Shown here: one piece after another, positions 3 to 49,267 of the stretch
Numbering within the stretch: position 1 is the stretch's first letter
How the letters are laid out: each line of letters starts with the position of its first letter
Assembly: GCA_964457335.1 (NCBI GenBank)
Contig: CAYWGD010000023.1
Coordinates: 1,127 to 65,126, forward strand
Reading direction: 5' to 3'
Source of the DNA: an uncultured Enterobacteriaceae bacterium
GTDB lineage: Bacteria > Myxococcota_A > UBA796 > SXON01
DNA length: 64,000 nucleotides
Position numbers and translations under genes: made by a program
The notes under the pieces: generated by a model
What the model was told of the DNA's origin: nothing
The model's database searches: none
Seen by the model: the letters and a program-made list of their open reading frames with translations, nothing else

Positions 3-2900
3 GAGGGCAAGGTCGCGGCGGAGCAGGCCAAGGGCGCCGCCGAGGCCGCGGCCCCCTACGGCGAGGACGCGCTCGCCCCGCAGGCCGAGCCCGAGACGCT
101 CACCGCCGCGGTCGGCGGGGGCGGGGGCGGCGGGGGCGCCGCCGGCGACGTGGCCGACGACGAGGTCGGCGCGATCGTCGCCGAGGAGCGGAACCGGCCT
201 GAGATCGACGCCGCGATGGCGCAGGGCCAGGCCGACATGGGCTCCGCGGAGTCGGACCAGGCCAAGGCCGAGACCGAGGCGCGCGAGCAGGCCAAGACCG
301 AGGTCGACACCGCGGTGGCCGAGAAGACGGCCGAGCAGGAGGGCGAGAAGGCCTCCGCCCAGGCGGACGTCGAGGCCGAGCGCAACAAGTGGACGGACGA
401 GCAGAAGAAGACCGTCGACGACGCCCGCGAGAAGGCCGACGGGCACGCCAAGACCGCGGTCGACGAGGCCGCGAAGCAGAAGGAGACCGCCGACAGCGAA
501 GCGGGCAAGGAGGTCGAGAAGGGCGAGACGGAGGCGGAGGCCGCCAAGGAGAAGGGCGAGAGCGACGCGCGGGCGGAGAAGGAGAAGGCCGAGTCGGAGT
601 CCGACGGGGTGTTCGGGTGGCTCGCGTCGAAGGCCAAGGCGTTCTTCGACGGGATCAAGGCCGGCATCAAGAAGGCGTTCGCGTTCGCCCGGGACATGGC
701 GAAGAAGGCGATCGAGGCGGCCAAGAAGCTCGCGGTCGCGGCCATCGAGAAGGCGCGCGAGGCCGCCATCGCCGCGGTGCGGCTCGCGGGCGACGCCATC
801 ATGGCCGTCGGCGACGTGGCCCTCGCCGCGTTCCCCGAGGCGCGCGAGAAGTTCCGCAGCGCCATCAAGGAGCGCGTCGCCGCCGCCGAGGAGACCATCA
901 ACCAGGCCGCGGACTTCCTGAAGGAGGCCGCCCAGAAGGCGCTCGACTTCCTCGGGGGCGCGCTCGACGCCGCGTTGGGGCTGCTCGAGAAGGCCTACCT
1001 CGCCGCCGTGGACGCCGTCGCCTCCGCGGTCGACGGCGCCATCAAGGCCGCCAAGGCCGCCGCCGAGGCCCTCGGCGGCTTCATGGCGCTCATCAAGGAC
1101 GTGGCGTCCGACCCCGGCGGCTGGATCGGCAAGCTCGGCGCCGCCGTGGTGGACGGCATCAAGAACCACCTCTGGACGGCCTTCAAGACCGCCGTGAAGG
1201 AGTGGTTCGACCAGAAGCTCGAGGAGGTGCTGGGGCTCGGCACCGCCATCTGGGAGTTCCTGTTCAAGGGCGGCATCAAGCTCGCGGATGTCGCCAAGAT
1301 GGCGTGGCAGGCGCTCATCAGCGCCATCCCCGGCGTGCTCATCGGCATCCTCATCGAGAAGCTCGTCGCGATGATCGTGCCGGCCGCCGGCGCCGTCATG
1401 GTCATCATCGAGGGGCTCCAGGCCGCGTGGGGCACCGTGAGCCGCATCCTCGCGGCCATCGGCAAGTTCATCGCCTTCCTCAAGGCCGTGAAGGGCGGCG
1501 GCGGCGCCCCCGCCTTCGCCACCGCCGTGGCCGCCGGCGCCATCGCGGTCATCGACTTCGTCGCCAACTGGTTGCTCGCCAAGCTCCGCAAGCCCGCCGG
1601 CAAGGTCGCCGGCAAGCTCCGCGCCATGGCCAACAAGATCATGGCCAAGATCAAGAAGGCCCTGAAGAAGGTCGCCAAGGCGCTGAAGAAGGCCGGGAAG
1701 AAGATCAAGGGCCTCTTCAAGAAGAAGGGGGGGAAGAAGGGGAAGAAGGGGAAGGAGAAGGACAAGCGCGCGAAGGATCAGGAGCGGTTGGACAAGGCGC
1801 AGCGGGAACTGACTCCGAAGATAAAATCGATGTTGGACAAGGGTGTGCGCGGAGTCGTACTGAAGGCTCGATTGCTCGCCTGGCGGGTGCAGTACCGCCT
1901 GTCGGCCCTGGAGGTCACCGGCGGAAAGTCGTTCCGAATTCGTGCCAAGGTGAATCCAACAGCGGAGCTGATTTCCGGCGTCGAGATGGATGTCGATGAA
2001 CTGCTGATCTTTGTGCGCGAGGTGGCGGCGAAGATGGCTAGCAGCGATCGGGTCAAGCGCGAATCCGCTGCGATCGCGGGTTCCGACCGTGGCAAGGAGC
2101 TTCCGTCCCCCGTAAAGAAGGGCGAGGACCCGCGGATGGGTCGCCAAGTGGACATCCCCGCTGGCACCAGCCATATTGGTGCCGCAGAAGGATTGAACGC
2201 CACCGGAGCGCTAGAGCGAGGCAAGGTCCGGGACGTCAATGCACTGACGCCCGGAGGAGAAATCAGCGCGGTCGCCCGGATCCAGCAGCCGCCGTTCGCA
2301 CCGTTGCCCGCGCGGCATTCAACTGCGGTGGTGAAAGAACCAAGCTCGGAAGGCGTGGGCTTCGAAAAAGGCGCGTACGCGGAGATTACCAAGCGACTCG
2401 GTCCGGGGTTCCCGGAGCACAAGCGCGGCCCCCTCACCGCGCAGGCCTTGGACACGTTCGCGCGCACAGGCAAGGCTCCGGCCGGGTTCTCCGAGGCACA
2501 ACTCCACGCGTTGCGCGTGACCATGTTCGGCGCGGAACGGAGCCGAAGTGCCGCGGCCAACGTCTGGGGCCAGATGTCAATCGACCTGATGAAAGCAGGG
2601 GCTAGCCCGGAGGACATCCTCGGAAAGGATGAGACCGGAGGCAAGCACCCGCTGTCGCCGAGGGGTGTCGGTGAGGACAAACGTGAACTCGAGGATCGCC
2701 TTGCACGAGTCAAGAGCGGAGAAGCCGGGGGAGAACCGACGGCCGGTGAGAAGCGGCAAATGGATCGGGAGGTAGCCATGATTACAGCTTGGCTCAAGTC
2801 GTTGAAGGACCTGTCTTTCGACGACAAGGCATCCATGGAAGAAAAGAAAAATCACATAAAGGCTGAAATCGAGCGTAGGATGATGGACTCTGTGAAGTGA
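3..2900 (+). CDS. Large polymorphic-toxin-like protein, 5' partial (coiled-coil/amphipathic core, hydrophobic segment, poly-Lys linker, variable C-terminal domain)
   Basis: The frame is open from the left window edge with no stop before the GTG at 150, so the gene starts upstream. The translation shows an Ala/Glu/Lys-rich coiled-coil-like stretch and hydrophobic segments ([46 protein letters not shown]). [17 protein letters not shown] linker follows, then a non-repetitive roughly 370-aa C-terminus encoded in visibly lower-GC DNA. The layout recalls DUF4157-type/eCIS-associated polymorphic toxins (from memory, not searched). Confidence 0.75.
511..919 (+). repeat. Direct repeat copy A (409 bp) inside the toxin gene
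   Basis: Aligns with 3928-4336 at a constant offset of 3417 nt. Only two mismatches were seen: 521 g vs 3938 t, and one codon aag vs cag (K vs Q, F vs C on the antisense track ORFs). The encoded peptides are otherwise identical (…[21 protein letters not shown]…INQAADFL). Confidence 0.9.
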
Positions 2901-2901
2901 G

Positions 2902-3495
2902 GTGGCGGTGAGCAAGCGAGGCGTGCGGTTGATCCCTCGGGTCGAGGTTCCGGTGGAGCGGCTGATCGACATCTCCCTGGAGCGCGGCTGGCAGCTTGAG
3001 AAGGCCATCGGCCGGGCGCCGAACGAAGGGATCTCCGGCGAGTTGGAGTACACGATTCCTGGCTCCGATACGATCGTGTACCTGCGGGATGACCTGCTCC
3101 TGGGGTTCCCGTTCATCACGGTGATCGGCCCTGACCAGGCGAACGTGGCAGCGGACCTCTCGCGAGACTTCGATCCGTGGCCTGAGCCCGATCTGTTGGC
3201 TTGGTGGGACCGGGCAGAAGGCTCGGGCGACATCGACGACAAGGTGGACGCCGTGCTCTACCTCGGAACGAACGCCGGAGAATCGGTTGATGAACGGTAC
3301 ATGACGCGGATCGAGAAAGCGCTGAGCGATCCAGACAAGGACGTGCGCAACGCAGCGGTCGTGGCGGCCGCCTACACCGACTGGCGCGTGTTTCGCGATC
3401 GTCTTGCCGAGATTGCGCAAAAAGATCTGGATCCAAAGGCCCGGGAACGCGCGGAGCATGTGGTGCGCGGGTGGAGAACCGAGGATGGGGGCTGA
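2902..3495 (+). CDS. Putative cognate immunity protein (N-terminal alpha/beta-like region + C-terminal HEAT-like repeats)
   Basis: GTG start 1 nt after the toxin stop (tga 2898-2900), preceded by gaggtgg. Alternative GTG at 2908. C-terminus has a HEAT/PBS-lyase-like motif (LSDPDKDVRNAAVVAAAY…LDPKARERAEHVV). It shares the lower-GC composition of the toxin C-terminal region. The immunity role is inferred from position only. Confidence 0.6.
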   Translation: MAVSKRGVRLIPRVEVPVERLIDISLERGWQLEKAIGRAPNEGISGELEYTIPGSDTIVYLRDDLLLGFPFITVIGPDQANVAADLSRDFDPWPEPDLLAWWDRAEGSGDIDDKVDAVLYLGTNAGESVDERYMTRIEKALSDPDKDVRNAAVVAAAYTDWRVFRDRLAEIAQKDLDPKARERAEHVVRGWRTEDGG

Positions 3496-3677
3496 CCGCG
3501 CCCTTCAGAAGGATTTGGGCCACGCAAAATCCGCCCCGGGCGGCCCGATCACCGTTTGATCCAACGTTTAACCGGACTGGGCGACTCCGTGACACGCGGA
3601 AGCCAACGCTGAGCAAACGTGCGAGCGGACAGCTGGGTGCACGCATGGCGACGGCACAGCCGATAGTCCACCACCCG

Positions 3678-3922
3678 CGCGAGGGGGGCTGGAGGGCGGC
3701 GCGGGCTCCCAAACATGACAGGCCGAAGGCCACATCGAGATCCAACGCCCGCGCCGGTCGGCCCGCGCGCAGCGGGCCGACCGAGGCCCTTCGGGCCGCT
3801 CCACCGCAGGCGGGGGGCGAAAGGGCTCGCTCGTGCGCAAGCCGAGCGAGACATCGTACGGCCCGGAAGACACCCGACCCGGCGTCTTCGCCGGGGGCGC
3901 GCCCAACTGAAGCCCTGACACC
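3678..3922 (+). repeat. Structured intergenic repeat element, copy 1 (with a roughly 60-nt internal insertion)
   Basis: Starts cgcgaggggggctggagggcggcgcggg and ends gcgcccaactgaagccctgacacc. Contains hairpin ggtcggcccgc-gcgca-gcgggccgacc and a second GC hairpin (cgacccggcg-tctt-cgccgggggcg). Collinear with copy 2 apart from an extra segment gctccaccgcaggcgggggg…catcgtacggc. Confidence 0.85.
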
Positions 3923-3927
3923 TGCGT

Positions 3928-4336
3928 AGGTCGAGAATGGCGAGACGGAGGCGGAGGCCGCCAAGGAGCAGGGCGAGAGCGACGCGCGGGCGGAGAAGGA
4001 GAAGGCCGAGTCGGAGTCCGACGGGGTGTTCGGGTGGCTCGCGTCGAAGGCCAAGGCGTTCTTCGACGGGATCAAGGCCGGCATCAAGAAGGCGTTCGCG
4101 TTCGCCCGGGACATGGCGAAGAAGGCGATCGAGGCGGCCAAGAAGCTCGCGGTCGCGGCCATCGAGAAGGCGCGCGAGGCCGCCATCGCCGCGGTGCGGC
4201 TCGCGGGCGACGCCATCATGGCCGTCGGCGACGTGGCCCTCGCCGCGTTCCCCGAGGCGCGCGAGAAGTTCCGCAGCGCCATCAAGGAGCGCGTCGCCGC
4301 CGCCGAGGAGACCATCAACCAGGCCGCGGACTTCCT
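3928..4336 (+). pseudogene. Orphan fragment of the toxin gene (direct repeat copy B)
   Basis: Near-identical to 511-919. It lacks the upstream and downstream parts of the toxin gene. A TAG lies immediately upstream in frame (3927-3929). At 4337 the homology stops abruptly and glycosylase-like sequence begins. Confidence 0.85.
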
Positions 4337-4337
4337 C

Positions 4338-4603
4338 AACGGCGCACCGCCCTCCGCGCCCGTCGGTCCGTGGACCGCCTGCTACGTCGCCATGCGCGCC
4401 GGTCGCGACCCCGACGCCTTCCTGGGCGGCGACACAACCTCCTGCGGAGGGCCGCCGACGCCGCGGGCGGGCGCCCGCCCCCCGCCGCGCTCCTCGCCCG
4501 CGCCGAGCCCTGGCGGCCGTACCGGGCCTACGCGGCCCAGCACCGGTGGGCGACGGACGCATCTCGATTCGAGAGCACGCAGCGGAGCGTCCCTCCGCGC
4601 TGA
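4338..4603 (+). pseudogene. 3' remnant of an AlkA-type (HhH-GPD) DNA glycosylase, 5'-truncated and frameshifted
   Basis: One frame reads VGPWTACYVAMRAGRDPDAFLGGD. From about 4430 a second frame reads NLLRRAADAAGG…LLARAEPWRPYRAYAAQHRWATD, ending at tga 4601-4603. Together these resemble the C-terminal part of AlkA-like proteins (E. coli AlkA has …GRWTANYFALRGW…ERWKPWRSYALLHIW, recalled from memory). No N-terminal part is present. Confidence 0.65.
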
Positions 4604-4653
4604 CGCCGGTACTTGCGGGTTCGTGAGGGCAGAACGCCCCACGGGAGGTACCG

Positions 4654-5418
4654 ATGAGGAAGCAACGACTCGAAGGCAAGGTGGCGATCGTGACGGGCGC
4701 GAGCTCGGGGATCGGGCGGGCGACGGCGGTCGCGATGGCGCGGGAAGGCGCGCGGGTGGTGGCCGCGGGCCGCCGCGCGGGCGAGCTCGAGGCGACCGTG
4801 CGCCTGGCCGAGGAGGCCGGGGGCGAGGCGATCGCCTGCGTCACCGACGTCACGGACGAGGCGCAGGTCGAGGCGCTCGTGGCGCGCGCGATGGCGCGCT
4901 ACGGGCGCGTGGACATCGGCGTGAACGCGGCCGGCGCCACGTTCGCGGGGGCGCTCACGCACGACCTCGACGTGTCCGCCTTCCGCGACTGGCTCGACGG
5001 CCACCTCGTGAGCGCGTTCCTGTGCACGAAGCACCAGGTCCGCGCGATGCTCGAGTCCGGCGGCGGCAGCGTGGTGCAGATCGGCACGTTCGTCGGCGAC
5101 ACCAAGGCGTTCCCGGGCACCGCCGGCTACGCCGCGGCGAAGACGGGCCTCCTCGGGCTCACCCGGACCGTCGCGGCCGAGTACGCGACGCGCGGCATCC
5201 GCGCCAACGTGCTCTCGCTCGGCGGGGTCGACACGCCGATGTTCCGCCTCTGGAACGACGACGCGGCCAGGCGCGAGGGCGCCGCGCAGCTGCACGCGAT
5301 GAAGCGCGTCGGCGCCCCGGACGAGATCGCGAACGCCGCGATCTTCCTCGCGAGCGACGAGGCCTCGTTCGTCACCGGCGGCGTCGTCGCGGTGGACGGG
5401 GGCGTGTCCCTGACCTGA
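4654..5418 (+). CDS. Short-chain dehydrogenase/reductase (classical SDR)
   Basis: GGAGG RBS before the ATG. TGASSGIG cofactor motif and YAAAK catalytic motif. 254 aa. Confidence 0.9.
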   Translation: MRKQRLEGKVAIVTGASSGIGRATAVAMAREGARVVAAGRRAGELEATVRLAEEAGGEAIACVTDVTDEAQVEALVARAMARYGRVDIGVNAAGATFAGALTHDLDVSAFRDWLDGHLVSAFLCTKHQVRAMLESGGGSVVQIGTFVGDTKAFPGTAGYAAAKTGLLGLTRTVAAEYATRGIRANVLSLGGVDTPMFRLWNDDAARREGAAQLHAMKRVGAPDEIANAAIFLASDEASFVTGGVVAVDGGVSLT

Positions 5419-5428
5419 TCGTCGGACG

Positions 5429-5616
5429 CGCGAGGGGGGCTGGAGGGCGGCGCGGGCATCCAAATGTGACAGGCCGAGGGCCGCGCCACGATCCAACGCC
5501 CGCGCCGGTCGGCCCGCGCGCAGCGGGCCGACCGAGGCCCCTCGGGCCGAGACCGGAAGACACCCGACCCCGGCGTCTTCGCCGGGGTCGCGCCCAACTG
5601 AATCCCTGACACACCA
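5429..5616 (+). repeat. Structured intergenic repeat element, copy 2
   Basis: Same start and end blocks as copy 1. Hairpins ggtcggcccgc-gcgca-gcgggccgacc and cgaccccggcg-tctt-cgccggggtcg. Confidence 0.85.
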
Positions 5617-5962: not shown

Positions 5963-6952
5963 TCAGCGTCGGAGCAGCTCCGCCTCGCGCTCCCGGGTGA
6001 GCGTCCGCGGCCGGTAGCGGCCGTCCGACTGCCTCGGCGGGTCGCCGGTCAGGGTGCGCGCCCACGCCAGCGTGTCCACCGCGGTCTCGCCGAGCGGCCG
6101 CAGGCGGAGGCCCGCGGCGAGCGCGCGGGCGTTGGGCGTGCGCAGCATGCCCGGGGCGTGGGGCGCCCACAGGGGGAGCTCGCTCCAGGGCTCGACGCCG
6201 GTGAGCCGGGCCGGGTCCGTCCAGACGAAGCGAGCGTCGCCGCCCACCGCCGCGCGGATCGCCGCGAGCGCGTCGCCGAAGGTCGTCTCGGGCCCGACCG
6301 CGTTGAAGACGCCGCCCGGGCCGCGCTCCGCGAGGTGCACGATCCACGCCGCCAGGTCGCGCGCGTCGATGACCTGTACGGGTCCGTCGGCCGGCGCGGG
6401 CGCGAGCACGTCGCCGCCCTCGGCCACGCGCACGGGCCAGTAGGTGAACCGCCCCGTGGGGTCGTGGGGGCCGCCGATGAGGCCCGGGCGCACGATGGTG
6501 GCACGTTCGTCGAGCACGCCGGCCACCACGCGCTCGCACGCCGCCTTGAGCGCGCCGTAGTGGGCGGCCACGTCCTCGGAGTGGGGGTCGGGCAGCGCGG
6601 GCGCGTCCTCGTCGTTGGGCCGCGAGAGGTCGGCGTACACCGACACGGACGACACGAACACGTAGCGCTGGCACGAGAGCGCGACGGACTGCGCGACGAC
6701 CCGCGGCACGAAGCCGCACGTGTCCACGATGGCGCCCCAGCGCCGCCCGGCGAGCACGTCGAGGCCGCCGTCGCGGTCGGCATGGACGCGCTCGAGGTCG
6801 GGAAACAAGTCGGGTTGGGTGAGCCCGCGCGTGAGCACGGTGACCGCGTGGCCGGCGGCGCGCGCCGCTTCGACGACGTGGCGCCCGAGGAAGACCGTGC
6901 CGCCGAGGACGAGGATGTTCACGCTCTCGACGTAGCCCGTGCCCGGCCTCAT
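5963..6952 (-). CDS. NAD(P)-dependent epimerase/dehydratase-like (atypical SDR) protein
   Basis: N-terminal ILVLGGTVFLGRH Rossmann motif. The true start may be the GTG at 6922 (VNILVLGG). Confidence 0.8.
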   Translation of the reverse strand: MRPGTGYVESVNILVLGGTVFLGRHVVEAARAAGHAVTVLTRGLTQPDLFPDLERVHADRDGGLDVLAGRRWGAIVDTCGFVPRVVAQSVALSCQRYVFVSSVSVYADLSRPNDEDAPALPDPHSEDVAAHYGALKAACERVVAGVLDERATIVRPGLIGGPHDPTGRFTYWPVRVAEGGDVLAPAPADGPVQVIDARDLAAWIVHLAERGPGGVFNAVGPETTFGDALAAIRAAVGGDARFVWTDPARLTGVEPWSELPLWAPHAPGMLRTPNARALAAGLRLRPLGETAVDTLAWARTLTGDPPRQSDGRYRPRTLTREREAELLRR

Positions 6953-6967
6953 CGCCGGTCCGCCGCG

Positions 6968-7351
6968 TCAGTGCGGCCCGCTCACGCCGACCTCGCGCTC
7001 CCGGAGGAGGTCGCGGATCTCGCCCAGGAGCGCGACCTCCTGGGGCGGGGCCTCGACCGCGGCCGCCTGCTTCCGGCGGAAGAACCGCATGAAGGGCAGC
7101 ACGATGAGGTAGTACAGGCCCGCCGCCTTCAAGACGAACGCGAGGATCGCGTTCAGGAAGCTCCCCAGCTTCACGGGCCCGACCGTGATCGCCGCGAAGT
7201 CGGGCGCCCCGCCGACGAGCCCGATCAGGGGGGTGATCACGTCCGCGACGAGCGAGTCGACCACGCTCGAGAAGGCGGCGCCGATGATGACGCCCACCGC
7301 GAGGTCGATCACGTTGCCGCGCAGGATGAAGTCCCGGAATCCCTTGAGCAT
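6968..7351 (-). CDS. mscL: Large-conductance mechanosensitive channel
   Basis: MLKGFRDFILRGNVIDLAVGVIIGAAF… is the canonical MscL N-terminus. 127 aa. Confidence 0.95.
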   Translation of the reverse strand: MLKGFRDFILRGNVIDLAVGVIIGAAFSSVVDSLVADVITPLIGLVGGAPDFAAITVGPVKLGSFLNAILAFVLKAAGLYYLIVLPFMRFFRRKQAAAVEAPPQEVALLGEIRDLLREREVGVSGPH

Positions 7352-7421
7352 GCCCCCCCCCTGGACCCGGAGTAGCCACGCGCCCCTGCCGCGTGCCTAC
7401 CCTCCTGGGAGGGAGGTGGGG

Positions 7422-7721
7422 ATGCGCGCCGTGTACCGCGTGGTGCCGGATGGGGACCGTTGGGCGATCCAGCTCGAGGGGCGGGGCACGCCGCTCTCGC
7501 TGCACGACCGCAAGAACGAGGCCGTCAAGGTGGCCCGCGACCAGGCGGAGCGCGACATGCCGAGCCGCCTCGTCATCGTGAACGGGCACGGCGACGTGGA
7601 GAGCGACCGCCTCTACGGCACCGACCAGCTCGAAGCGGACGTGCGGGGGATGCGGTCGATGGAGGAGCCCCTGCCCGAGGGGCTCGAGCCCATGCCCGAG
7701 ATGGAGGAGGAGCCGACCTGA
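7422..7721 (+). CDS. DUF2188-like small protein
   Basis: ATG at 7422 preceded by gggaggtgggg. YRVVPDGDRWAIQLEG…HDRKNEAVKVARDQA is the typical DUF2188 pattern. The upstream part of track ORF 7185.. is antisense to mscL and is discarded. Confidence 0.7.
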   Translation: MRAVYRVVPDGDRWAIQLEGRGTPLSLHDRKNEAVKVARDQAERDMPSRLVIVNGHGDVESDRLYGTDQLEADVRGMRSMEEPLPEGLEPMPEMEEEPT

Positions 7722-7733
7722 CGCGCGGATCCG

Positions 7734-9551
7734 CTATCCGCCGAACATCTTCCAGAAGGCGTCGCCGACGCCCACGATGCTCTCGCCCGCGATGACGCCC
7801 GCGCAGAGCACGATGCCGAAACGCGCCGTCCACTGCGGGGCGAAGCGCTGGCCGAGCGCCATCGCCACCGCGCCGACGAGGAAGGAGAGCACCGTGTAGG
7901 CCTGCACCGTGAACGCGAGCCCCACGGAGACGGGGCTCGGGATCCACGGGCGGGCCTTGGCCGGCGCCGTCTTCTCGGCGATGGCCAGCGCCATGGCGAC
8001 CACCGCGGCGATCGCCATCGCCTCCATCGCCATCGGGGGCATGGCGGAGAGCCCCTGCTTGAACACCTCGGCCACCGCCTTCCAGGTGGCCACCGCGGGG
8101 GCGGCCCACTCGTCGGTCAAGAGCTGGGACTTGGGATCCGGGATCAGCACGAGGTAGGCGGCCGAGCCGATGAGCGCGCCGGAAACGACGCCGAGCGCCT
8201 GCGCGACGAACTGGTGGCGCGGCCAGCTGCCGAGCATCATCCCCGTCTTCAGGTCGTGCAACAGGTCGCCGCACTGGCTCGCGGCGCCGCCCGTGACGTT
8301 GGCCGCCATGAGGTTGGACGCCACGTTGGACGGATCGAGCACGCCGAAGGTGAGCTGCGTCACCTTCCCCATCGCGCCCACGGGCGTCACGCCCGTCTCG
8401 CCGGACACGCGGCCCGCCACGATGGCCAGCACGAAGGAGAGGAACACGCCCAGGACCGCGAGCCAGGGCTTCACGTCGAAGAACGCGACCTGCAGCGTGG
8501 TGGAGGCCACGAGCACGATCGCCAGGAACGCCCAGAACGTGCGGCGCGGCACGTCGGTCGGATCGGCCGCGTCGACGGACGCGGACCTCGCCGCCTTCAA
8601 CCCGGACAGCACCGACTTGATCGTGAACGCGAACGACGTGAGCGAACCGACGACCATCAGCGTGACGCCGGGCCACAGGAGCCACTGGACGCCGCTGGTG
8701 AACCACGGCTTCGCGGGGTCGGCGGGGCCGGGCTTCATCCAGCCCGCCTCGAGCGCCATGGGCGCGAAGACGCCCCAGGCCAAGACCGCGCCGAGCACCA
8801 TCGAGAGCGTGGCGCGGAGCCCGATGATGCCCCCGGTCGCCACCATGAGCAGCGAGGGCTCCAGCGAGAACGTCAGGTTCGCGAGGGTGTAGCTCGTCGA
8901 GCCGCCCGTGAACGTGGCCGGGATCGCGAGGTGCGGGGGGTGCGCCACGAGGTTCGCGAGCTTGCTTGCCGCCCCGGCGACGCCGCCGGCGAGCAGCATC
9001 TTCACGCGCGCCACGGCCTCCTCGCCCTTGGCGTACATCTCCTTGAGCGTCTCGCCCGTGGCCATGCCGCCGGGGAACGTGAGCCCGCTGTTCACGAGGA
9101 GCTGCTTGCGCACGGCCACCGCGGCGGTCACGCCGACGAGCCCGACCGAGAGCACCCAAACGGCCAGCTGCGGCCAGGAGAGCACCGTCCCCTCCAGCAG
9201 CGTCAGCGCCGGGATCGGCGCCACGAGCCCCGCCGAGGAGATCGCGGCCGCGGCCGACGCCGCCGTCTGGTTCAGGTTGTTCTCCAGCACGCCGAAGGGG
9301 CGAAGCCGGAACGCCCGCGTGAGCGCCGCCCAGAGCCCGAAGCCGAGGAGCGCGGCGGTGACGGACATGTTCATGCTCCAGCCGATCTTCAAGCCCAGGT
9401 AGATGTTGCACAACGACAGGCCGCCGCCGAGCAGCATGCCGGTGGCGATCGAGCGCGCGGTGTAGCCTCGGTCGGCGGGGACCTCGGAGTCGAGGGCGGC
9501 GTGGGCGGGTTCGGACACGGAGCCTCCGCGGGCCAGGGTAGCCGAATCCAT
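7734..9551 (-). CDS. OPT-family oligopeptide transporter
   Basis: 605 aa polytopic membrane protein. N-terminal block TGMLLGGGLSLCNIYLGLKIGWSMNMSVTAALLGF is typical of the OPT superfamily. Confidence 0.85.
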   Translation of the reverse strand: MDSATLARGGSVSEPAHAALDSEVPADRGYTARSIATGMLLGGGLSLCNIYLGLKIGWSMNMSVTAALLGFGLWAALTRAFRLRPFGVLENNLNQTAASAAAAISSAGLVAPIPALTLLEGTVLSWPQLAVWVLSVGLVGVTAAVAVRKQLLVNSGLTFPGGMATGETLKEMYAKGEEAVARVKMLLAGGVAGAASKLANLVAHPPHLAIPATFTGGSTSYTLANLTFSLEPSLLMVATGGIIGLRATLSMVLGAVLAWGVFAPMALEAGWMKPGPADPAKPWFTSGVQWLLWPGVTLMVVGSLTSFAFTIKSVLSGLKAARSASVDAADPTDVPRRTFWAFLAIVLVASTTLQVAFFDVKPWLAVLGVFLSFVLAIVAGRVSGETGVTPVGAMGKVTQLTFGVLDPSNVASNLMAANVTGGAASQCGDLLHDLKTGMMLGSWPRHQFVAQALGVVSGALIGSAAYLVLIPDPKSQLLTDEWAAPAVATWKAVAEVFKQGLSAMPPMAMEAMAIAAVVAMALAIAEKTAPAKARPWIPSPVSVGLAFTVQAYTVLSFLVGAVAMALGQRFAPQWTARFGIVLCAGVIAGESIVGVGDAFWKMFGG

Positions 9552-9676
9552 CCCGGCCCGGGGAGCGGGATCAGGGCACCCGGCCGCCCACGGTCACGCC
9601 GTGCTCCAGGCGCCGCCGTGGCGTCCGGTGCGGCGACGTCGGCGCCGGGCGGGACGTCGGCGGCTCCTGTGCGAGG

Positions 9677-12532
9677 ATGTCCCGCATGTTCTGGCTCCTG
9701 TCCGTCGCGATGGCTCGCGAGGCCGCGTGGCGATGGGTCACCGCGGACCAGGGGCTCGTCTCCGAGCACGTCAACGACGTGGTCCAGGGCCCGGACGGCA
9801 TGATGTGGATCGCGACGCACGGCGGCGTGTACCGCTGGGACGGGCAGCGCGCCGTGCGCCAGGACGGGGGCGCGCTCGGCATCGAGGTCTCCCACATCGT
9901 GTTCGACGCCGCCGGCACGCTGCACGCCCGCGACGCCTACCGCGGCTTGTGGCGCTTCGGGCCCGGGGGCGCCGTGAAGGTGGAGGCTCCGCCGGTCGAC
10001 GACCTCGCCGTGGACCGCGGGCGCGTCCTCGTGCTGGCCGAGAACACCGCGTGGCGCGTCACGGAGGCGGGGCTCGAGGCGCTCCCCGTGGCGCTCCCGC
10101 GCTGGACACGGGTGCTCCGCGCCGACGGCGCCACGGTCGTCGCCGGCACCCAGGACGCCTTCTGGCTCGTCGAGCCCGGCCTGCGGCCGCACAAGATCGC
10201 GGACGCCACGATCGCGATCGACGCCGCGCCGGCCGGCGACGGCACGTGGTGGCTCCTCGACGTCCTGGGGACCGTGCGCCGGGTACACACGAGCGGCGCC
10301 CCGATCACCGAGGTGAACCGGACGGGGCGCGGGCTGCGGATCACCGTGCGGCACGGCGACGCCTGGGTCGGCTACGACAACGGCTTCGTGCGCGTCGGCC
10401 TCGAGGACTCGACGGACACCTGGGGCACGAGCCGGGGCGTGCACACCGGCGGGCGCATCTGGTTCGACGACGAGGGCAGCCTCTGGCTCGCGACGTTCCG
10501 CGGGCTCGGGCAGCTCCCGGACGTGGGCTCGGCGCTCTACGACCGCGACGACGGGCTCCCCGGGGAGGCGCTCCGCGACCTGGAGCTCGTCGGCGACACG
10601 CTCTGGGTGTCGGGCTGGGGCGGGCTCGTCCGGATGCCGGCGGGCGGCGGCGTCCTCGCCCCCTGGGACGAGCTGGTCCTGAAGGGGCGGCTCTGCGCGG
10701 ACGGCGCGGGTGGTGTGTGGGGAGTGGGGACCGACGGGCCGGACGGACCCGCGCGCTTCGTGCGGATCGACGCGGCGGGCACCCGCACGTGGCCCGCCGT
10801 GTCGCGCTCCCACTTCCTCGACGACTGCGAGCCCGCCGGCGACGGGAGCGTCTGGATCACCGCGGCGGACGGCCTCTGGCGGGCCGGGCCGGACGCCGCG
10901 CCCCGGCGCGTGGCGGAGTGGCCCACCCGGGCGATCGAGCGCGAGACGAAGGGCCTCGCGGTGGCGCCCGACGGCAGCGTGTGGGCGGCCGGGGGGGAGA
11001 CGGTGTGCCACCTCCGGGAGGCGTGGACGTGCGAGACGCTCGGGCGGGGCGCGCACGTGACGGACATCGAGGTGACGGCGAGCGGGGCGCCGTGGGTGGC
11101 CAACGCGCTCGACGGCGTGCTGCGCCGCGGAGCGGCGGGGTGGGAGCCGATCCCGGGCGTCGCGGCCCTCCCGTCGCGGTCGGTGCTCGGCCTCGCGCGA
11201 TCGCCGCGCGGCGGGATCTGGGTGCTCGGGCACGGCGTGGTCACCCGGGTCGAGGAGGACGCCTCCGACGCGGGCTGGCGCGAGGTGGAGACGCTCGCCG
11301 CGTGGCTCGGCCACCTCGTGTCGGGCGCCGCCGATCTCGTGGAGCTCCCCGACGGCGGCATGTGGATCGCCCACAACGGCGGGCTCACCCAGGTGTCCGC
11401 CGGGTCCCGGGAGCCGCCGAGCGAGCCGCCGGGGGTGACGCTCCTGGAGCTCCGGGTGGACGGGCGGCGCGTCGACCCAGGGGCGGACACGGCGACCGGG
11501 CCTCCCGCGGTCGCGGCCGGCGCGCCCGGCGGCGCCGTCGCGCGCGCCGTGCTCCCCTCCCCCCGCTCGGGCGTGCTGCTGCGCTTCGTGGCGCCCACGT
11601 GGCGCGCCCCGTCGCTCGTCCGCTACCGCGTGCGCGTCGGGGACGGCGCGTGGCGCGAGCTCGGCGGCCGCGGCGAGCTCGAGCTCGGGGACCTCCGCGC
11701 CGGCCGGTACACGGTCGAGGTCGCGGCGAGCCTCGACGGGCGCCGGTGGAGCGCCGAGCCGCTTCGCGTCGCGCTCGACGTGCCGCTCCCCTGGCACCGG
11801 CGCCCCACGGTGTGGGCGGGCGCCGCGGCGCTCGTGGCGCTCGTCGCGATGGGGGCCGAGCGGGCGCGCGGCCGGGTCGAGCGGCGCATCGAGCGGCTGC
11901 GCACCCGCGTGGCCCTCGACCTGCACGACGAGATCGGCGCCGGCCTCGGCGCCATCGGGCTCCTCGCGGGCCTGACGGGGCGCGCGGACCTCCCCGCGGA
12001 CGCGCGGGCCGAAGCCGCCGGGCGCGTGGCCCGCATCGCCGGGGCGCTCGGCGGCGCGATGCGCGGCATCGTCTGGTCGCTCCGGCCCGAGAGCGCGCGG
12101 ATGGACGCGCTCGGGCGGTACCTCGGCGAGCAGGCGCGGGCGCTCTTGCCGGAGCTCCACCACGCAGGCGGCCTCTCGCTCTCGCTCCCCGACGAGCCCG
12201 TGCCGATCGACCTCGACGTGCTCCGGGCCGTGCAGCTCGTCGGGTTGGAGGCGCTCCACAACGTGGCCCGGCACGCCGCCGCGCGCCGGGTGCACGTGAA
12301 GCTCGGCCGCGACGCGCGCGGCTGGGCGCTCGTCGTCGAGGACGACGGGGCGGGCCTCGGCGGCGGGGTGGCCGACGCCGCGGACGCCGGCAACGGGCTG
12401 TTGTCCCTGCGCATGCGCGCGGAGCAGGTGGGGGGGCGCCTGGAGATCGGGCCCGGCGCGGCCGGCGGCACGCGCGTGCGGCTCTGGTTCGTCTCCGTCC
12501 GGTCGCGTTGGACGGGCAGGAGGTCCGAATGA
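9677..12532 (+). CDS. Sensor histidine kinase with periplasmic/extracytoplasmic beta-propeller repeats (HisKA_3 type)
   Basis: Repeated W-containing propeller-like motifs (DGMMWIATHGGVYRWDG, GSLWLATFRGL, GSVWITAADGLWR…). TM segment WAGAAALVALVAM. H-box LDLHDEIGAGL (NarX/LiaS type), then an ATPase region (GNGLLSLRMRAEQVGG). Confidence 0.9.
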   Translation: MSRMFWLLSVAMAREAAWRWVTADQGLVSEHVNDVVQGPDGMMWIATHGGVYRWDGQRAVRQDGGALGIEVSHIVFDAAGTLHARDAYRGLWRFGPGGAVKVEAPPVDDLAVDRGRVLVLAENTAWRVTEAGLEALPVALPRWTRVLRADGATVVAGTQDAFWLVEPGLRPHKIADATIAIDAAPAGDGTWWLLDVLGTVRRVHTSGAPITEVNRTGRGLRITVRHGDAWVGYDNGFVRVGLEDSTDTWGTSRGVHTGGRIWFDDEGSLWLATFRGLGQLPDVGSALYDRDDGLPGEALRDLELVGDTLWVSGWGGLVRMPAGGGVLAPWDELVLKGRLCADGAGGVWGVGTDGPDGPARFVRIDAAGTRTWPAVSRSHFLDDCEPAGDGSVWITAADGLWRAGPDAAPRRVAEWPTRAIERETKGLAVAPDGSVWAAGGETVCHLREAWTCETLGRGAHVTDIEVTASGAPWVANALDGVLRRGAAGWEPIPGVAALPSRSVLGLARSPRGGIWVLGHGVVTRVEEDASDAGWREVETLAAWLGHLVSGAADLVELPDGGMWIAHNGGLTQVSAGSREPPSEPPGVTLLELRVDGRRVDPGADTATGPPAVAAGAPGGAVARAVLPSPRSGVLLRFVAPTWRAPSLVRYRVRVGDGAWRELGGRGELELGDLRAGRYTVEVAASLDGRRWSAEPLRVALDVPLPWHRRPTVWAGAAALVALVAMGAERARGRVERRIERLRTRVALDLHDEIGAGLGAIGLLAGLTGRADLPADARAEAAGRVARIAGALGGAMRGIVWSLRPESARMDALGRYLGEQARALLPELHHAGGLSLSLPDEPVPIDLDVLRAVQLVGLEALHNVARHAAARRVHVKLGRDARGWALVVEDDGAGLGGGVADAADAGNGLLSLRMRAEQVGGRLEIGPGAAGGTRVRLWFVSVRSRWTGRRSE

Positions 12533-13188
12533 GCGTCCGCGTCGCGATCGTGGAGGACCAGGCCTCCTTCCGACAGGCCCTGGAGCTGGTGCTCGCGCAC
12601 ACGCCTGGCTTCGAGCTCGCGGGGAGCTTCCCGAGCGTCGAGGAGCTCACCCGCGCGCTCGACGACCCCCGCGCGCTCGCGCGGCGCTGGGACGTGGTCG
12701 TCATGGACCTCGACCTGCCCGGGGCGAGCGGGCTCGAGGGGACGCGGCGCGTGAAGCGGCGGTCGCCCGACACGGCCGTGCTCGTGTGCACGGTGTTCGA
12801 GGAGGCGGCCACGCTCGTGGAGGCGATCGGCGCGGGCGCGGACGGCTACGTCGTGAAGGGCGCGCCGCTCGACACGCTGCTCGAGCAGGTGCGGACCGTC
12901 GCCCACGGCGGGGGCATCCTCTCCGCCACCGTCGCCCGCACCCTGCTCGAGGTGGTCCGCGGCCAGGCCGCCGACGCCGGCCCCGCCCCCGCCCGCCTCG
13001 ACCTCACCGACCGTGAGCGCGACGTGCTCCGCTGCCTCGTGGACGGGATGAGCTACAAGCAGGCGGCCGACGCGCTCGACGTGAGCCCGAACACGGTGCG
13101 GACGCACGTGAAGGCGCTCTACCGCAAGCTCCAGGTGCAGAACGTGGCGGAGGCGGTGAGCCGGGCGATCCGGCAGCGGCTGGTCTGA
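12529..13188 (+). CDS. Response regulator, NarL/LuxR family
   Basis: The ATG overlaps the kinase stop (ATGA at 12529-12532). Receiver domain (VVVMDLDLPGASG) plus a C-terminal HTH (LTDRERDVLRCLVDGMSYKQAADAL). Confidence 0.9.
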   Translation: MSVRVAIVEDQASFRQALELVLAHTPGFELAGSFPSVEELTRALDDPRALARRWDVVVMDLDLPGASGLEGTRRVKRRSPDTAVLVCTVFEEAATLVEAIGAGADGYVVKGAPLDTLLEQVRTVAHGGGILSATVARTLLEVVRGQAADAGPAPARLDLTDRERDVLRCLVDGMSYKQAADALDVSPNTVRTHVKALYRKLQVQNVAEAVSRAIRQRLV

Positions 13189-13194
13189 ACCGCT

Positions 13195-13587
13195 TCACCG
13201 CCCGGCCCGGGCCGACAGCGCCACGCCCACGAGGAGCACGCACGCGCTCCCGACGTGGAACGGCCCCGCCGACGCCCCGACGGCGGCGAGGGCCCCGCCG
13301 GCGGCGACCCCGTCGAAGGCGTCCGCGCCCGCGACCACGTGGTAGCCCGCGAGGAAGACGGCGAGCGTGCGCAGCGCCGCGGCGTCGAGGCGGCGGAGCG
13401 CCCACAGCGTGAAGAGCGCGGTGGTGGCGTTCGTGAAGCCGGCGAGCCGGAAGCCGAGGCGGCCCGCGTCGTCGAGCGGCGCGTGCACCACCTGCTCCGC
13501 GAAGAGCGCGAAGCCGACACCGCCGAGCAGGAGCTGCGCCGCGGCGTTGAGGGCCAGCGGCGCCTGGATCCAGCGGGCGCTCCTCAT
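13195..13587 (-). CDS. Small integral membrane protein (about 4 TM)
   Basis: 130 aa hydrophobic protein. Its ATG at 13587 overlaps the stop of the upstream KAS III gene (13584-13586). Last gene of the operon. Confidence 0.6.
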   Translation of the reverse strand: MRSARWIQAPLALNAAAQLLLGGVGFALFAEQVVHAPLDDAGRLGFRLAGFTNATTALFTLWALRRLDAAALRTLAVFLAGYHVVAGADAFDGVAAGGALAAVGASAGPFHVGSACVLLVGVALSARAGR

Positions 13588-14666
13588 GCGGTGTGGGCGA
13601 TCGGCCCGGCCCGGAGCACGGTCGCGCCCGAGGACGACACCGACCCCATCGTGAACAGCACCACGAGGTCGCCCGCGCGCACCTTCCCCTCGGCGAGCCC
13701 GTGGTGCAGGAGGAACGCGGGGAACGGGGCGCCGAGGTTCGCGTAGCGCGGGAAGAGGTCGATCGTCCGCGCGGGGTCGATCTCCAGCGCGCGCACGCAC
13801 AGCCGCGCGAACCACGCGAGCGGCGTCGAGAAGCCCCAGTACACGACCTGCTCGGGCGCCACGCCGGCGCGCTCCAGGGCGGCGGCGCAGAGCCGGCGCA
13901 CCAGCGCGGGGCTCGACGCCTCGCGCAGCGGCCGCCCGCCGGCCGGCCCGACGGCCATCCGCACGCACGGCCGCCCGTCGGCGCCCACCTGCAGCGCGTG
14001 CTCGAACACGCCGCAGGTCTCCGCGGTGTTCTCGGCGTAGCTCCCGAGCAGCCCCTCCCGGTCGTCGCGCGCGGGCCCCACGACCCACGCGGCCGCGGCG
14101 TCGCTGCTGATCCAGCCGAGCGTGCCGGCGGGGTCGGTGTGCCGCGAGTTCGTCGAGGAGAGCACCACCAGGACGCGCCGGAACGTCCCCGCCACGACGA
14201 GCGCCTGCGCCAGCTGGAGGCACGCCGTGCCGCTCGAGCAGGCCGACTCGACGTTGTACGCGGGCGCCGTCACGCCCAGCGCCCGCGCGAGCAGCACCGC
14301 GTCCCCCGGCGCGACGAAGCGCTCGGGCAGCCACGAGGCGCAGAGGATCGCGTCCACGTCGCGCGCGTCGAGCCCCGCCAGCGCGATCGCCGCGCGGGCC
14401 ACCTCCTCCTCCAGGCCGAGCGCGGTCTCCCCCGGCGCGAGGAGCCAGCGCACCTGCGCGCCGCGGAAGGGATCGTCGGCGTAGCGGGCCATCTCGGCGT
14501 CGAAGCCGCTCGACCGCTCGGTCCCGTCGGTGGTGGAGAAGGCCCGGGCGAGGCCCTTCTCCCTCGCCGTGGCCAGCACCTCGGGCCGGTGGGCCAGGTA
14601 CCAGTCGTTCGTCCGCCGCTCGCCGCCCCGGCGTACCGCGACGCTCCAGATCGCGGCGCGGGTCAC
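13584..14666 (-). CDS. KAS III (FabH)-like ketosynthase/acyltransferase
   Basis: GTG at 14666 with GGAGG upstream; it overlaps the stop of the ThDP gene (GTGA). Active-site Cys context YNVESACSSGTACL. C-terminal YANLGAPF and GDLVVLFTMGSG-like blocks typical of the FabH fold. Confidence 0.85.
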   Translation of the reverse strand: MTRAAIWSVAVRRGGERRTNDWYLAHRPEVLATAREKGLARAFSTTDGTERSSGFDAEMARYADDPFRGAQVRWLLAPGETALGLEEEVARAAIALAGLDARDVDAILCASWLPERFVAPGDAVLLARALGVTAPAYNVESACSSGTACLQLAQALVVAGTFRRVLVVLSSTNSRHTDPAGTLGWISSDAAAAWVVGPARDDREGLLGSYAENTAETCGVFEHALQVGADGRPCVRMAVGPAGGRPLREASSPALVRRLCAAALERAGVAPEQVVYWGFSTPLAWFARLCVRALEIDPARTIDLFPRYANLGAPFPAFLLHHGLAEGKVRAGDLVVLFTMGSVSSSGATVLRAGPIAHTA

Positions 14667-16364
14667 GTCGCCTCCGCGGCGGCGGCCCAGGTGAGCGACC
14701 GCACGCGCCGGCCGATCGGCGCCGGCTCGTCCCGGTCGACGAGCACGTCGACCAGCGCGGGGCCGGGGAGCGTGACCGCGCGCGCGAGCGCCGCGGCGAG
14801 CTCCTCCTCGCTCGCGACCCGCTCCGCGCGCATCCCCATGGCGCGGGCCACCGCGGCGAAGTCGACCGGGGCCAGCCCGGTGGGCGTGCCGGGGAGCCCG
14901 TTGCCGTCGAGGCCCTGGCGGCACATGCCGTACTGCGAGTCGTTGAGCACGACCCACGTGGCCGGGAGGCCGTCACGCACGGCGGTGGCGAGCTCGTTGC
15001 CCATGAGCACGGCGCCGTCCCCGACGAGCGCGACCGTTCGCCGACCGGCCGCCGCGGGCCCGATGGCGCCGCCCGTGGCGTGCCCCATCGAGCCCCAGCC
15101 CACGCTGATCCGGAGGCGCGGCCGGTCGGCGGTGGATCGCCCACGCGAAGCTGTTGCCCGACTCGGCGAGCACGAGCGCGTCGGAGCCGTCGACCACCAC
15201 GCGCTGCACGGTGTCGAGCAGGAAGCTCGGCCGCACCGGGCCGAGCTTCCGGGGCGGGCCCGCGACGACCACCGCGGGGCGGGGCGCCACCGGCGGGACC
15301 TCGGGCAGGCGCTCCAGGAGGTCCCGGAGGAAGGGGGCCACCGACGCCTGGACGGCGACGAGCGGCGCGGAGGGGTACGCCCCCGCGGCGAGCTCGCCCG
15401 TGTCGCTCACCTGGACGAGGAGCCGCGTCGGGCGGAGCGCGTCCGTCCAGCCGCTCGACGCCTCGCCCAGGTGCGTCCCCAGCGCGAGCACCACCTCCGG
15501 CCGCTCCACGAGCGCGGCCTCGGCGGAGTCGTGCCCGCCGACGCCGAGCACGCCCACGCAGCGCGGGTGGCGCTCGGAGAGGATGCCCTTGCCGCGCGGC
15601 GTCGAGGCCGCGAGCCACCCCGTGCGCTCGACGAGCGCGCGCACCTCGGCCGCGGCGTCGCGCGCGCCGAAGCCCACCACCACGAACCCCCGGCGGGCCG
15701 CGAGCGCGGCGATCGCGTCGACCATCGCGGGGTCGACGCGCGCCCCGGCGAGCCGCACGGGGCCGACCGGGAGGGGCTCGTGGGACACCTCGGCCTGCAC
15801 GTCGCTCGCGAGCCCGAGGTGCACGACCGCCCCGCCCGGCCGGGCGAGCGCCTCCGCAGCCCGTTGCAGCGCCGGGGCGAGCATGCGCGCGTCGGTGATC
15901 AGGGCCGCCTCGTCGAACAGCGGGCCCGCCTGGTAGAGGCCCGAGAGCGGCCCGCCCTCGGCGGTCTCCTGCGTGGCGCCGCGCAGCCGGCGGCTCACGG
16001 GGGTTGCGGCCGACAGCACGATCACCCGGGCGCCCTCCTGCCGCGCCGCGACGATCCCGGTGAGCGCGTTGGTGAGGCCGGGGCCCGTCGTCGTGAACAC
16101 CGCGACGGGCGCGCCGGTCTCGAGGGACGCCTCGGTCGCGGCGAAGGCGGCGCTCGACTCGTGGGCGGTGTGGACGACGCGGAGGCCGGGGGCGTGGCCG
16201 AGCGCGTGCCAGAGGTGGGCCACCGCGCCGCCGGTCACGCCGAACGCGAGGCGGACGCCCTGCGCGAGGAGCCAGTCGACCACGCGATCGGCCCCCCGCC
16301 GCGCGGGCGCGGGCCGACGGAGCTCGGTGGTGGGGTCGGGGAGCGAGAAGGGGTCGACGAGCAT
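14663..16364 (-). pseudogene. ThDP-dependent acetolactate-synthase-like enzyme with an apparent frameshift
   Basis: N-terminal and middle domains are in one frame (…FGVTGGAVAHLW…TTTGPGLTNAL…LAESGNSFAWAIHR). The C-terminal ThDP-binding domain is in another frame (DRPRLRISVGWGSMGHATGGAIG…GDGAVLMGNELATA…VLNDSQYGM). The span is 1702 nt, not a multiple of 3, and the switch maps to about 15125-15135. Either a sequencing error or a genuine inactivation. Confidence 0.8.
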
Positions 16365-17648: not shown

Positions 17649-17663
17649 CCACCCGAGCGCCCG

Positions 17664-19562: not shown

Positions 19563-19721
19563 CGCCGCCTCCGTTCACGGGCCCATCCGGAAGGATGTCG
19601 GCCGAGAACCGGGCGTAACCCGACGTGCGTACGTCGTCTCGTGACAATGCTCGCCGGGAGCACCCGACGTCGTTACCCAAGCGTGTGGTCGGCGCCCTCC
19701 GGCCCGTCCGACGGAGTCGCC

Positions 19722-32005: not shown

Positions 32006-32020
32006 CCGCGGATCCGGGCG

Positions 32021-32219
32021 CGCCCCCCGGGCGCCCGCGGTGTGTCGGAGTTGTCGGCGGCGCAGCGGCGCCCGGGGGTCGGGTGTCCTCCGGGCTCGGC
32101 GCGGAGCGCCTCGGTCGGGCCGCCGCGCGCGGCCCGACCAGCGCGGGCGTCAGGGCGTCCGGTGGCCTCCGGCCCTCCGGGGTGGCGCGCCCGCGCTGCC
32201 CTCCGGCCCCCCTCGCGCG
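32021..32219 (-). repeat. Structured intergenic repeat element, copy 3 (inverted orientation)
   Basis: Collinear with the reverse complement of copy 2 (ggtgtgtc…cctcggtcgggccgc-cgcgc-gcggcccgacc…ccctccggcccccctcgcgcg). The hairpin carries a G/C swap that preserves pairing relative to copies 1 and 2. Confidence 0.8.
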
Positions 32220-32368
32220 GGCGGCTCGGTTGTTCGGGCGGTAGGGGCCCCGCACCACCCGACGGGGCCGGCGCCACGGAGCGGTCCGTCGCGGCTGGGG
32301 AGGCGAGACGTGCGCCCTCGTGTCACGGGCGGGGCCCGATCGACGTTTCGGGCTCCTCGGAGCGACCC

Positions 32369-49189: not shown

Positions 49190-49267
49190 CGGGGTGTAGC
49201 GCAGCCTGGCTAGCGCGTCTGGTTCGGGACCAGAAGGTCGTGGGTTCGAATCCCGCCACCCCGACCA
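49190..49267 (+). tRNA. tRNA-Pro (anticodon CGG)
   Basis: Cloverleaf by hand: acceptor CGGGGTG/CACCCCG, D stem GCGC/GCGC, anticodon stem TCTGG/CCAGA with loop TTCGGGA, T stem GTGGG/CCCGC with loop TTCGAAT, discriminator A and encoded CCA. Confidence 0.95.

Follow-up and report, generated by a model that had tools for sequence, protein, structure and literature searches.

A 409-nt copy of mid-core toxin sequence beside a truncated alkA pseudogene, a probable rearrangement scar at a polymorphic toxin locus

The region studied here is a window of 64,000 nucleotides (nt) on the forward strand of contig CAYWGD010000023.1 (positions 1,127 to 65,126; assembly GCA_964457335.1), which is assigned to an uncultured Enterobacteriaceae bacterium (Genome Taxonomy Database lineage Bacteria; Myxococcota_A; UBA796; SXON01). 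Its left end carries the 3′ part of a large polymorphic toxin gene, a putative immunity gene, a structured intergenic repeat element and a 409-nt second copy of an internal part of the toxin gene, followed by the remnant of an alkA-type glycosylase gene and by a gene encoding an SDR oxidoreductase (Table 1). In a first-pass annotation, made from the sequence alone, the locus had been likened to rearrangement hotspot (Rhs) and contact-dependent growth inhibition (CDI) loci and the second copy to the orphan fragments that serve cassette exchange there. The analysis reported below bears out the repeat and points to another origin for its second copy, which is probably a scar, the dead by-product of an illegitimate rearrangement at the right edge of the toxin locus.

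The two copies of the repeat, 511-919 (copy 1) and 3928-4336 (copy 2), were compared without gaps; with the offset constant at 3417 nt, 407 of the 409 positions proved identical. The coordinates and the two differences given in the first-pass annotation were exact. The first difference (521 G in copy 1, 3938 T in copy 2) changes AAG (Lys) into AAT (Asn) and the second (552 A, 3969 C) changes AAG (Lys) into CAG (Gln), both substitutions in copy 2 being non-synonymous relative to copy 1. The longest perfect run between the copies is 367 nt. Both mismatches fall within the first 42 nt, a clustering expected by chance in about 2% of cases when either end is counted. The edges of the repeat are sharp, with identity at background level from one base beyond each end, and the similarity between the copies is far above the chance level. 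No further long copy of the toxin gene was detected in the 64-kb window using blastn and tblastn.

Between the copies, the interval 920-3927 contains the remaining core of the toxin, its variable C-terminus, the immunity gene (2902/2908-3495), a 175-nt spacer and copy A of the intergenic element (3671-3921), as had been described, and a crossover between the copies would remove the 3′ part of the toxin gene together with the immunity gene. Copy 2 was likewise correctly recognized as an isolated internal fragment: an in-frame TAG at 3927-3929, which shares its last two bases with the start of copy 2, stands just upstream, and unrelated DNA stands just downstream. Neither junction has homology to the partner, since element A can be aligned with copies B and C until 3921 and alkA homology begins at 4345 or earlier. 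No template for the junction bases was found, their 9- to 12-mers being matched only by chance across the window.

The sequence to the right of copy 2, previously described as foreign, was identified by homology as a decayed alkA stump, which would place copy 2 at the breakpoint of a deletion or rearrangement. The remnant contains at least two frameshifts, one of which breaks the helix-hairpin-helix motif. A contig of a close relative (L004; Logan, ERR14173585) matches the window with 91% nucleotide identity over 1078 nt and carries, in this order, the C-terminal MGMT domain of ada with its PCHRV motif, an intact gene encoding AlkA_N and HhH-GPD domains and, 51 nt further on, the orthologous SDR gene. 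The window lacks ada and, of alkA, the 5′ two-thirds. Divergence from the relative at codon positions 1 and 2 amounts to 9.4% in the alkA remnant versus 3.3% in the adjacent SDR gene, in which the differences are concentrated at third codon positions. The SDR gene is, judging by synteny, the ancestral right-hand neighbour of alkA. The first-pass annotation had proposed comparison with related genomes to find the ancestral configuration; as the relative has retained an intact ada-alkA-SDR arrangement, the window carries the derived, deleted state. The nearest alkA homologue is P0127 (66%). A search with the ada fragment of the relative was uninformative on an upstream ada, since the MGMT domains of many taxa share 80-88% identity.

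The toxin gene was assigned to a family through its homologues. No Pfam or NCBIfam family matched the visible 965 amino acids (aa) at E ≤ 0.1, and these contain neither RHS/YD repeats with a PxxxxDPxGL core end nor haemagglutinin repeats with a VENN motif. A database search with the visible protein returned 365 homologues, mostly of ~1600 aa, with best matches from Polyangiaceae and Corallococcus; many are 'partial' at contig ends in public assemblies. The full-coverage homologues P0001 and P0023 have PF13699, eCIS_core (DUF4157), near the N-terminus (E about 1e-17). A scan of genome contigs with the toxin yielded one distant locus only (L003, 43% identity), in which a homologous toxin carries an HELLH metallopeptidase motif. 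Homology to the window toxin ends in clusters at aa ~540, ~650-700 or 866, or runs to the end (965). The core is common to 120 homologues and is followed by interchangeable C-terminal domains, such as the Ntox15 C-terminus of P0117 (E 2e-25). From these modular ends, the window gene is classified as a polymorphic toxin of roughly 1600 aa, as the first-pass annotation had proposed. It would belong to the type associated with the Photorhabdus virulence cassette (PVC) and other extracellular contractile injection systems (eCIS), not to Rhs or CDI, and the earlier assignment to an Rhs/CDI-type locus does not hold.

Polymorphic toxins with a 'PVC-metallopeptidase', recombining with standalone cassettes, were described by Zhang et al. 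2012 (PMC3482391); Geller et al. 2021 (PMC8213781) described eCIS-associated toxins that are linked to DUF4157 and have linkers of great length. The window toxin resembles the latter in its very long linker and variable C-terminal toxin domain; the N-terminal DUF4157 is seen in its homologues, the N-terminus of the window gene itself lying beyond the window. It differs in that the 61 kb downstream (searched from 4.6 to 64 kb) are free of eCIS structural genes and in that an immunity gene is present, which is absent for many PVC-type toxins. No eCIS genes were found within 10 kb on either side of the toxin of another family locus (L086). Two further candidates were discarded. An open reading frame (ORF) at 17649-22490 (1614 codons), considered as a second toxin, proved to be a spurious stop-free frame over methyltransferase and radical-SAM genes, and P0015, considered as a large orphan, corresponds to the 3′ half of a gene that is full-length but frameshifted.

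Base composition separates the toxin gene into two parts. The GC content at third codon positions (GC3) is 0.995 for nt 3-1640, comparable to that of the native SDR gene (0.984), and falls abruptly from nt ~1710 to about 0.7 (0.6-0.83). The immunity gene has a GC3 of 0.785, GC is low in the spacer up to 3670 as well, and overall GC drops from 0.72 to 0.59-0.64. The break in GC3 at nt ~1700 delimits a cassette of nt ~1700-3670, which by its composition appears to be horizontally acquired, recent and unameliorated, with its left junction in the Lys-rich linker. The 409-bp repeat lies ~780 nt upstream of this junction (aa ~566, nt ~1700), in fully native sequence.

Within the cassette, exact products are on record for the immunity-gene starts at 2908 and 2953. 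Another family locus (L082) encodes a toxin C-terminal domain that is 61% identical and, directly downstream, a protein that is 51% identical to the immunity product. Homologues of the immunity gene follow the toxin in seven further loci, and two HEAT_2 genes lie downstream of the toxin gene P0026 in L086. The gene at 2908-3495 is therefore predicted, by conserved linkage only, to behave as the immunity partner, in line with the earlier proposal of a toxin with a linked immunity gene. For the pre-toxin and C-terminal region (nt 1953-2897), an AlphaFold model of high confidence (pLDDT 91.5, pTM 0.90) shows an alpha/beta domain with a helical domain behind it. In the PDB no fold matched significantly (best Foldseek E 0.33), and the toxin C-terminal region gave neither a Pfam match nor a PDB sequence match; full-length alignments to AadA/ANT(3'')(9) nucleotidyltransferases were non-significant. 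Among 23 homologues Tyr142 and Glu195 (region numbering) are invariant and Arg198 is nearly so. The region may represent an undescribed toxin domain.

Relatives of the locus were screened for orphan modules with self-blastn and with the window protein as a tblastn query, covering 80 metagenome loci with a core alignment together with L003, L086 and L087. In L087, from a metagenome-assembled genome of the Polyangiaceae (GCA_049840955.1, contig JASGIX010000042.1, 10001-22748), the main toxin is followed by three orphan modules starting at 14295, 18148 and 21301. Their first 476-543 nt are 94-95% identical to the main-gene segment 11067-11603; each has a sharp left edge after stop codons, and they continue into three different C-terminal regions with small ORFs. 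A conserved junction of ~800 nt with a DUF559 remnant (13510-14816 versus 17359-18675, 94.6%) stands before each module. The main toxin of L087 is annotated as two overlapping ORFs, 6241-10101 and 10001-12748 (1286 and 915 aa), which probably reflects a frameshift or sequencing error in one gene of ~2200 aa. In L046, a metagenome contig from the Joint Genome Institute (JGI), a bare 285-nt fragment of core end and Lys-rich linker (10933-11217 versus 15323-15601, 91.6% identical) lies behind two low-GC genes, at a distance of 4.4 kb downstream from the toxin. No toxin domain follows; the fragment runs into stop codons and is visible as a GC blip (0.50) within an island of 0.35-0.40 GC. A tandem DUF4157 paralogue is present in L012. 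Judging by these loci, the eCIS_core toxin family does appear to build Rhs-like orphan arrays, and to this extent the orphan-fragment framework of the first-pass annotation stands for the family, with three cases in L087 and one in L046.

For copy 2 itself the framework fails. The L087 and L046 fragments share the core family with the window toxin (44-52% aa identity), and as partial core copies 91-95% identical to their main gene, their left edges sharp and set behind stop codons, they resemble copy 2. They comprise the last part of the core with the Lys/Arg-rich linker (window aa ~423-590), unlike copy 2, which covers aa 170-306 and has nothing behind it. Four features define an orphan module, and copy 2 shows one of them: its match to the main gene, at 407/409 identity with a 367-nt perfect run, is close enough for homologous recombination. 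Copy 2 does not adjoin the conserved/variable junction (aa 170-306 versus aa ~566), no alternative C-terminal toxin domain follows, as alkA homology starts within 8 nt, and no immunity gene follows, the next gene being the syntenic SDR. By these features copy 2 would not count as an orphan module. It encodes nothing, carries no alternative cassette and has no evident function. Having neither an alternative toxin end nor an immunity gene, it cannot drive cassette exchange, and the substrate role first proposed for it, at ~780 nt upstream of the cassette junction, leaves nothing to exchange.

The closest described system is that of rhs-main with its rhs-CT-orphan in Salmonella Typhimurium LT2, the two sharing a 522-bp repeat of 95% identity (Koskiniemi et al. 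2014, PMC3967940). As in that locus, a direct repeat of a conserved toxin part lies downstream of the main toxin end and immunity gene, and a crossover between the copies deletes both of these. The Salmonella orphan reads on into another toxin end, which is functional and has an immunity gene of its own, so that recombination creates a new toxin. The window fragment, in contrast, is mid-core, stems from a toxin family without RHS repeats and ends in a truncated alkA pseudogene, and recombination only destroys.

The Salmonella repeat, which mediates rearrangement after locus duplication (PMC3967940), also lends some appeal to the idea that copy 2 is a recombination handle maintained by selection, for reversible amplification and loss or as right-hand homology in swaps of whole cassettes between strains with the same layout. 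Identity of 99.5% next to a decayed alkA stump, with the mismatches at one edge, is the pattern of ongoing gene conversion that such a handle would show. We nevertheless regard it as very unlikely. A bare core fragment downstream of the toxin was present in only 1 of 83 other family loci (L046), where it is located at the core end, and the handle is without conservation evidence. The deletion product would be useless, with the toxin cut at aa 306, an out-of-frame fusion to the alkA stump and the immunity gene lost, and the two changes in copy 2, both non-synonymous, speak against a constraint on coding.

Both right-hand exits of the repeat are supported by reads. Two Logan contigs (run SRR32005135), recovered by exact-protein look-up and assembled independently from public reads, correspond to window 890-3703 (L005) and 4307-5456 (L001) at 100% identity, each in 3 samples. 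Each begins exactly 30 nt inside the right end of a repeat copy, as expected from the k-1 overlap of a k=31 graph at a branch. Since the contigs break at both right-hand repeat ends, the exits 919|920 and 4336|4337 are both present in the reads. No Logan contig across the left junction (3921-3928) was retrieved. The order of the copies is beyond k-mer verification because 367 identical bases separate the single-nucleotide differences from the exits, and the read graph would fit equally well if a 3417-bp circle existed beside a deleted chromosome, or if the unit were tandemly amplified. Either is unlikely as the true state. The position of these differences within 42 nt of the left junction and the lack of shared sequence at 3921-3928 argue that copy 2 is a physically distinct sequence.

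These data also bear on an artefact of assembly or population, in which the true state would be a mixture or another threading of a two-copy repeat, for example a chromosome with the toxin fused at 919 to the alkA stump plus a circular or tandemly amplified 3417-bp unit or a second strain, which the contig would have merged into a single path. The source is a 77.7-kb draft contig, apparently from metagenome-type runs; the 367 identical bases exceed short-read length, so that k-mers cannot fix the threading; and the many homologues that are 'partial' at contig ends indicate that such genes break assemblies. Even so, the chance of an artefact appears very slim. The two differences tie a distinct copy 2 to element A, whereas a collapsed or invented copy would be identical, and at 3921-3928 there is no sequence overlap to cause a false join. 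Both exits occur in 3 samples, and a 3.4-kb circle that lacks replication functions would not be kept at the copy number of the chromosome.

We infer the following order and mechanism of events, and hold the resulting reading of copy 2 as a rearrangement scar with moderate confidence. A second, partial copy of the toxin gene would once have been located downstream of the toxin-immunity pair, derived from tandem duplication of the 3417-bp unit, from a displaced orphan module or from templated insertion during break repair. A later deletion would have extended from core position 920 of this second copy through to alkA codon ~217, taking with it any second toxin end and immunity gene, ada and the 5′ two-thirds of alkA. 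The remnant would be 409 nt of mid-core sequence, joined on the left via 6 bases to element A and on the right via at most 8 to the alkA stump. Its near-identity would stem from recent origin or from gene conversion by the expressed gene; both, already proposed in the first-pass annotation, are plausible. At present, copy 2 could act as a 409-bp RecA substrate, a crossover with copy 1, whether intramolecular or unequal, deleting or tandemly amplifying the 3417-bp unit, and this, judging from the Salmonella LT2 repeat, would be its sole plausible activity. The deletion product, a toxin cut at aa 306 without immunity, should be counter-selected.

With both junctions non-homologous, and one of them also the point at which alkA is cut off, a scar is the most parsimonious account. 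Support for it comes from the family, in which it is normal for a partial second toxin copy to lie downstream of the main gene (L087, L046, L012). Several observations weigh against it. The 5′ end of the toxin gene and all upstream DNA lie beyond the window, so that the history is not reconstructable, and a single close relative contig of 1963 bp (L004) is available to polarise the change. Orphans in relatives begin at aa ~423, not at aa 170, and offer no exact precedent for an origin of copy 2 from a displaced orphan. Clustering of both mismatches in the first 42 nt is not predicted by a plain recent duplication. The alkA stump, moreover, gives the impression of a greater age than the repeat with its 0.5% divergence, so that a single duplication plus deletion does not suffice unless gene conversion is added or a second event followed later. 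The indel-based form of this age argument is weak alone, as with two indels in 259 nt a stretch of 409 nt would be free of indels with a probability of about 0.15. Taken with the clustered mismatches, the age mismatch nonetheless suggests gene conversion or a second event.

Join-point scars and other remnants of tandem duplications in bacterial chromosomes typically consist of a direct repeat with non-homologous joins, the second copy having mostly been deleted later. Such scars are rarely kept at 99.5% identity beside a decayed pseudogene, as copy 2 is, which again hints at gene conversion or a later event. For duplications of this kind, we refer to the work of the Roth laboratory as it is cited in PMC3967940.

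The difference in age would arise naturally if the unit had been acquired by Campbell-type integration. A 3417-bp circle from a close relative, comprising the core from 511 onward, the toxin end, the immunity gene and element A, would have entered by a single crossover in the 409 bp. The resident toxin, truncated earlier at 919 and fused to the alkA stump, would have been restored to full length with duplication of the crossover region, leaving an old alkA truncation beside a young repeat. Single-crossover integration is recognized by a direct repeat that brackets precisely the DNA that came in, the toxin-immunity cassette within the unit is compositionally foreign, and polymorphic toxins are known to diversify through recombination with standalone cassettes (PMC3482391). 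The de Bruijn graph, too, fits a 3417-bp circle and a deleted chromosome equally well. This origin is still unlikely. It requires three events, namely the old deletion, a circle with a non-homologous 3927|511 joint and the integration. A truncated resident gene would be expected to decay like alkA, yet it differs from the incoming copy at no more than 2 of 409 positions. The 3417-bp unit contains neither an integrase nor a replication function or a recombination site, and the cassette junctions of the family are at the core end and the Lys-rich linker, not at aa 170-306.

A bolder reading would make the 3417-bp unit a minicircle cassette mobilised by RecA, entering and leaving the toxin gene at the 409-bp handle, which gene conversion would keep identical. 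We give this little credence. If true, it would amount to an on/off or copy-number switch and to a route of cassette transfer undescribed for PVC/eCIS-type toxins.

The practical importance of copy 2 would lie in marking a site of predictable instability, where the toxin-immunity unit may be lost or amplified and assemblies may break or be mis-threaded. The finding also indicates that duplication, displacement and deletion shape eCIS_core/DUF4157 toxins in the way that they shape Rhs and CDI loci; in the literature searched, no account at the level of the locus was found of orphan modules in this toxin group. Such rearrangements can damage neighbouring housekeeping genes, here by the apparent destruction of the ada-alkA alkylation-repair operon. 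For cassette exchange in the eCIS_core toxin family, the orphan array of L087 is the more useful lead.

Table 1. Coordinates of the features at the toxin locus and of the intergenic repeat element in the window
Feature	Position (nt)	Strand	Remarks
Polymorphic toxin gene, 3′ 2.9 kb (965 codons and stop)	3..2900	+	Frame open from nt 3; 5′ end beyond window
Toxin, E/K/A-rich linker	to ~600	+	
Toxin, conserved core, rich in hydrophobic helices	~600-1640	+	
Toxin, Lys-rich linker	~1620-1720	+	
Toxin, shared pre-toxin domain	~1725-2070	+	
Toxin, C-terminal domain	~2070-2897	+	
Repeat copy 1	511..919	+	Inside toxin gene, aa 170-306 of visible fragment; GC3 ~1.0, native codon usage
Compositionally foreign cassette (pre-toxin and C-terminal toxin domains, immunity gene, 175-nt spacer)	1700..3670	+	From GC3 and GC
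Putative immunity gene, HEAT-like	2908..3495	+	Weak HEAT_2 match; alternative starts 2902, 2908 (NCBI), 2953 (Logan)
Structured intergenic repeat element, copy A	3671..3921	+	61-nt insertion versus copies B and C
Left junction of copy 2	3922..3927	+	6 bases assigned to neither side
Repeat copy 2	3928..4336	+	Promoterless, isolated mid-core toxin fragment; right exit 4336|4337 in Logan contig L001
Right junction of copy 2	4337..4344	+	≤8 bases assignable to neither partner
alkA-type DNA-3-methyladenine glycosylase, 3′ remnant (last ~86 codons), pseudogene	4345..4603	+	Homologous to L004 812-1070
SDR oxidoreductase gene	4654..5418	+	Pfam and NCBIfam matches; 93.5% identical to L004 1122-1886
Structured intergenic repeat element, copy B	5421..5612	+	Absent after SDR gene in L004
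Structured intergenic repeat element, copy C	32077..32223	-	Partial, about 77% identical

The intergenic element that borders copy 2 on the left is GC-rich and ~190 nt long, with a perfect hairpin of 12-bp stem (CGGTCGGCCCGC...GCGGGCCGACCG) and a second hairpin; its RNA fold has a z-score of -3.8. No Rfam family matched the element, which gave only a sub-threshold match to a small RNA, and no convincing terminators or promoters were found in element A. Copy C is located just across the 5′ boundary of an FG-GAP/MopE gene at 32006-34252 (+), which has a paralogue at 17664-19574 (-), both being FG-GAP-repeat genes with MopE-type metal-binding motifs.

Other genes of the window encode an outer-membrane beta-barrel, TonB_C and CotH. 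Taken with the FG-GAP/MopE genes and with the best toxin matches, from Polyangiaceae and Corallococcus, they indicate a high-GC diderm that probably belongs to the Myxococcota. ARAGORN called a tRNA-Pro(ggg) at 20394-20466 and a 92-nt tRNA-Asp(atc) at 36261-36352, both probably false positives in GC-rich sequence; the only tRNA supported by the Rfam tRNA model at the gathering threshold is located at 49190-49264. Outside the window, ~24 tandem repeats of 21-22 nt were observed at 9293-9800 of L086, immediately upstream of the toxin gene P0026.

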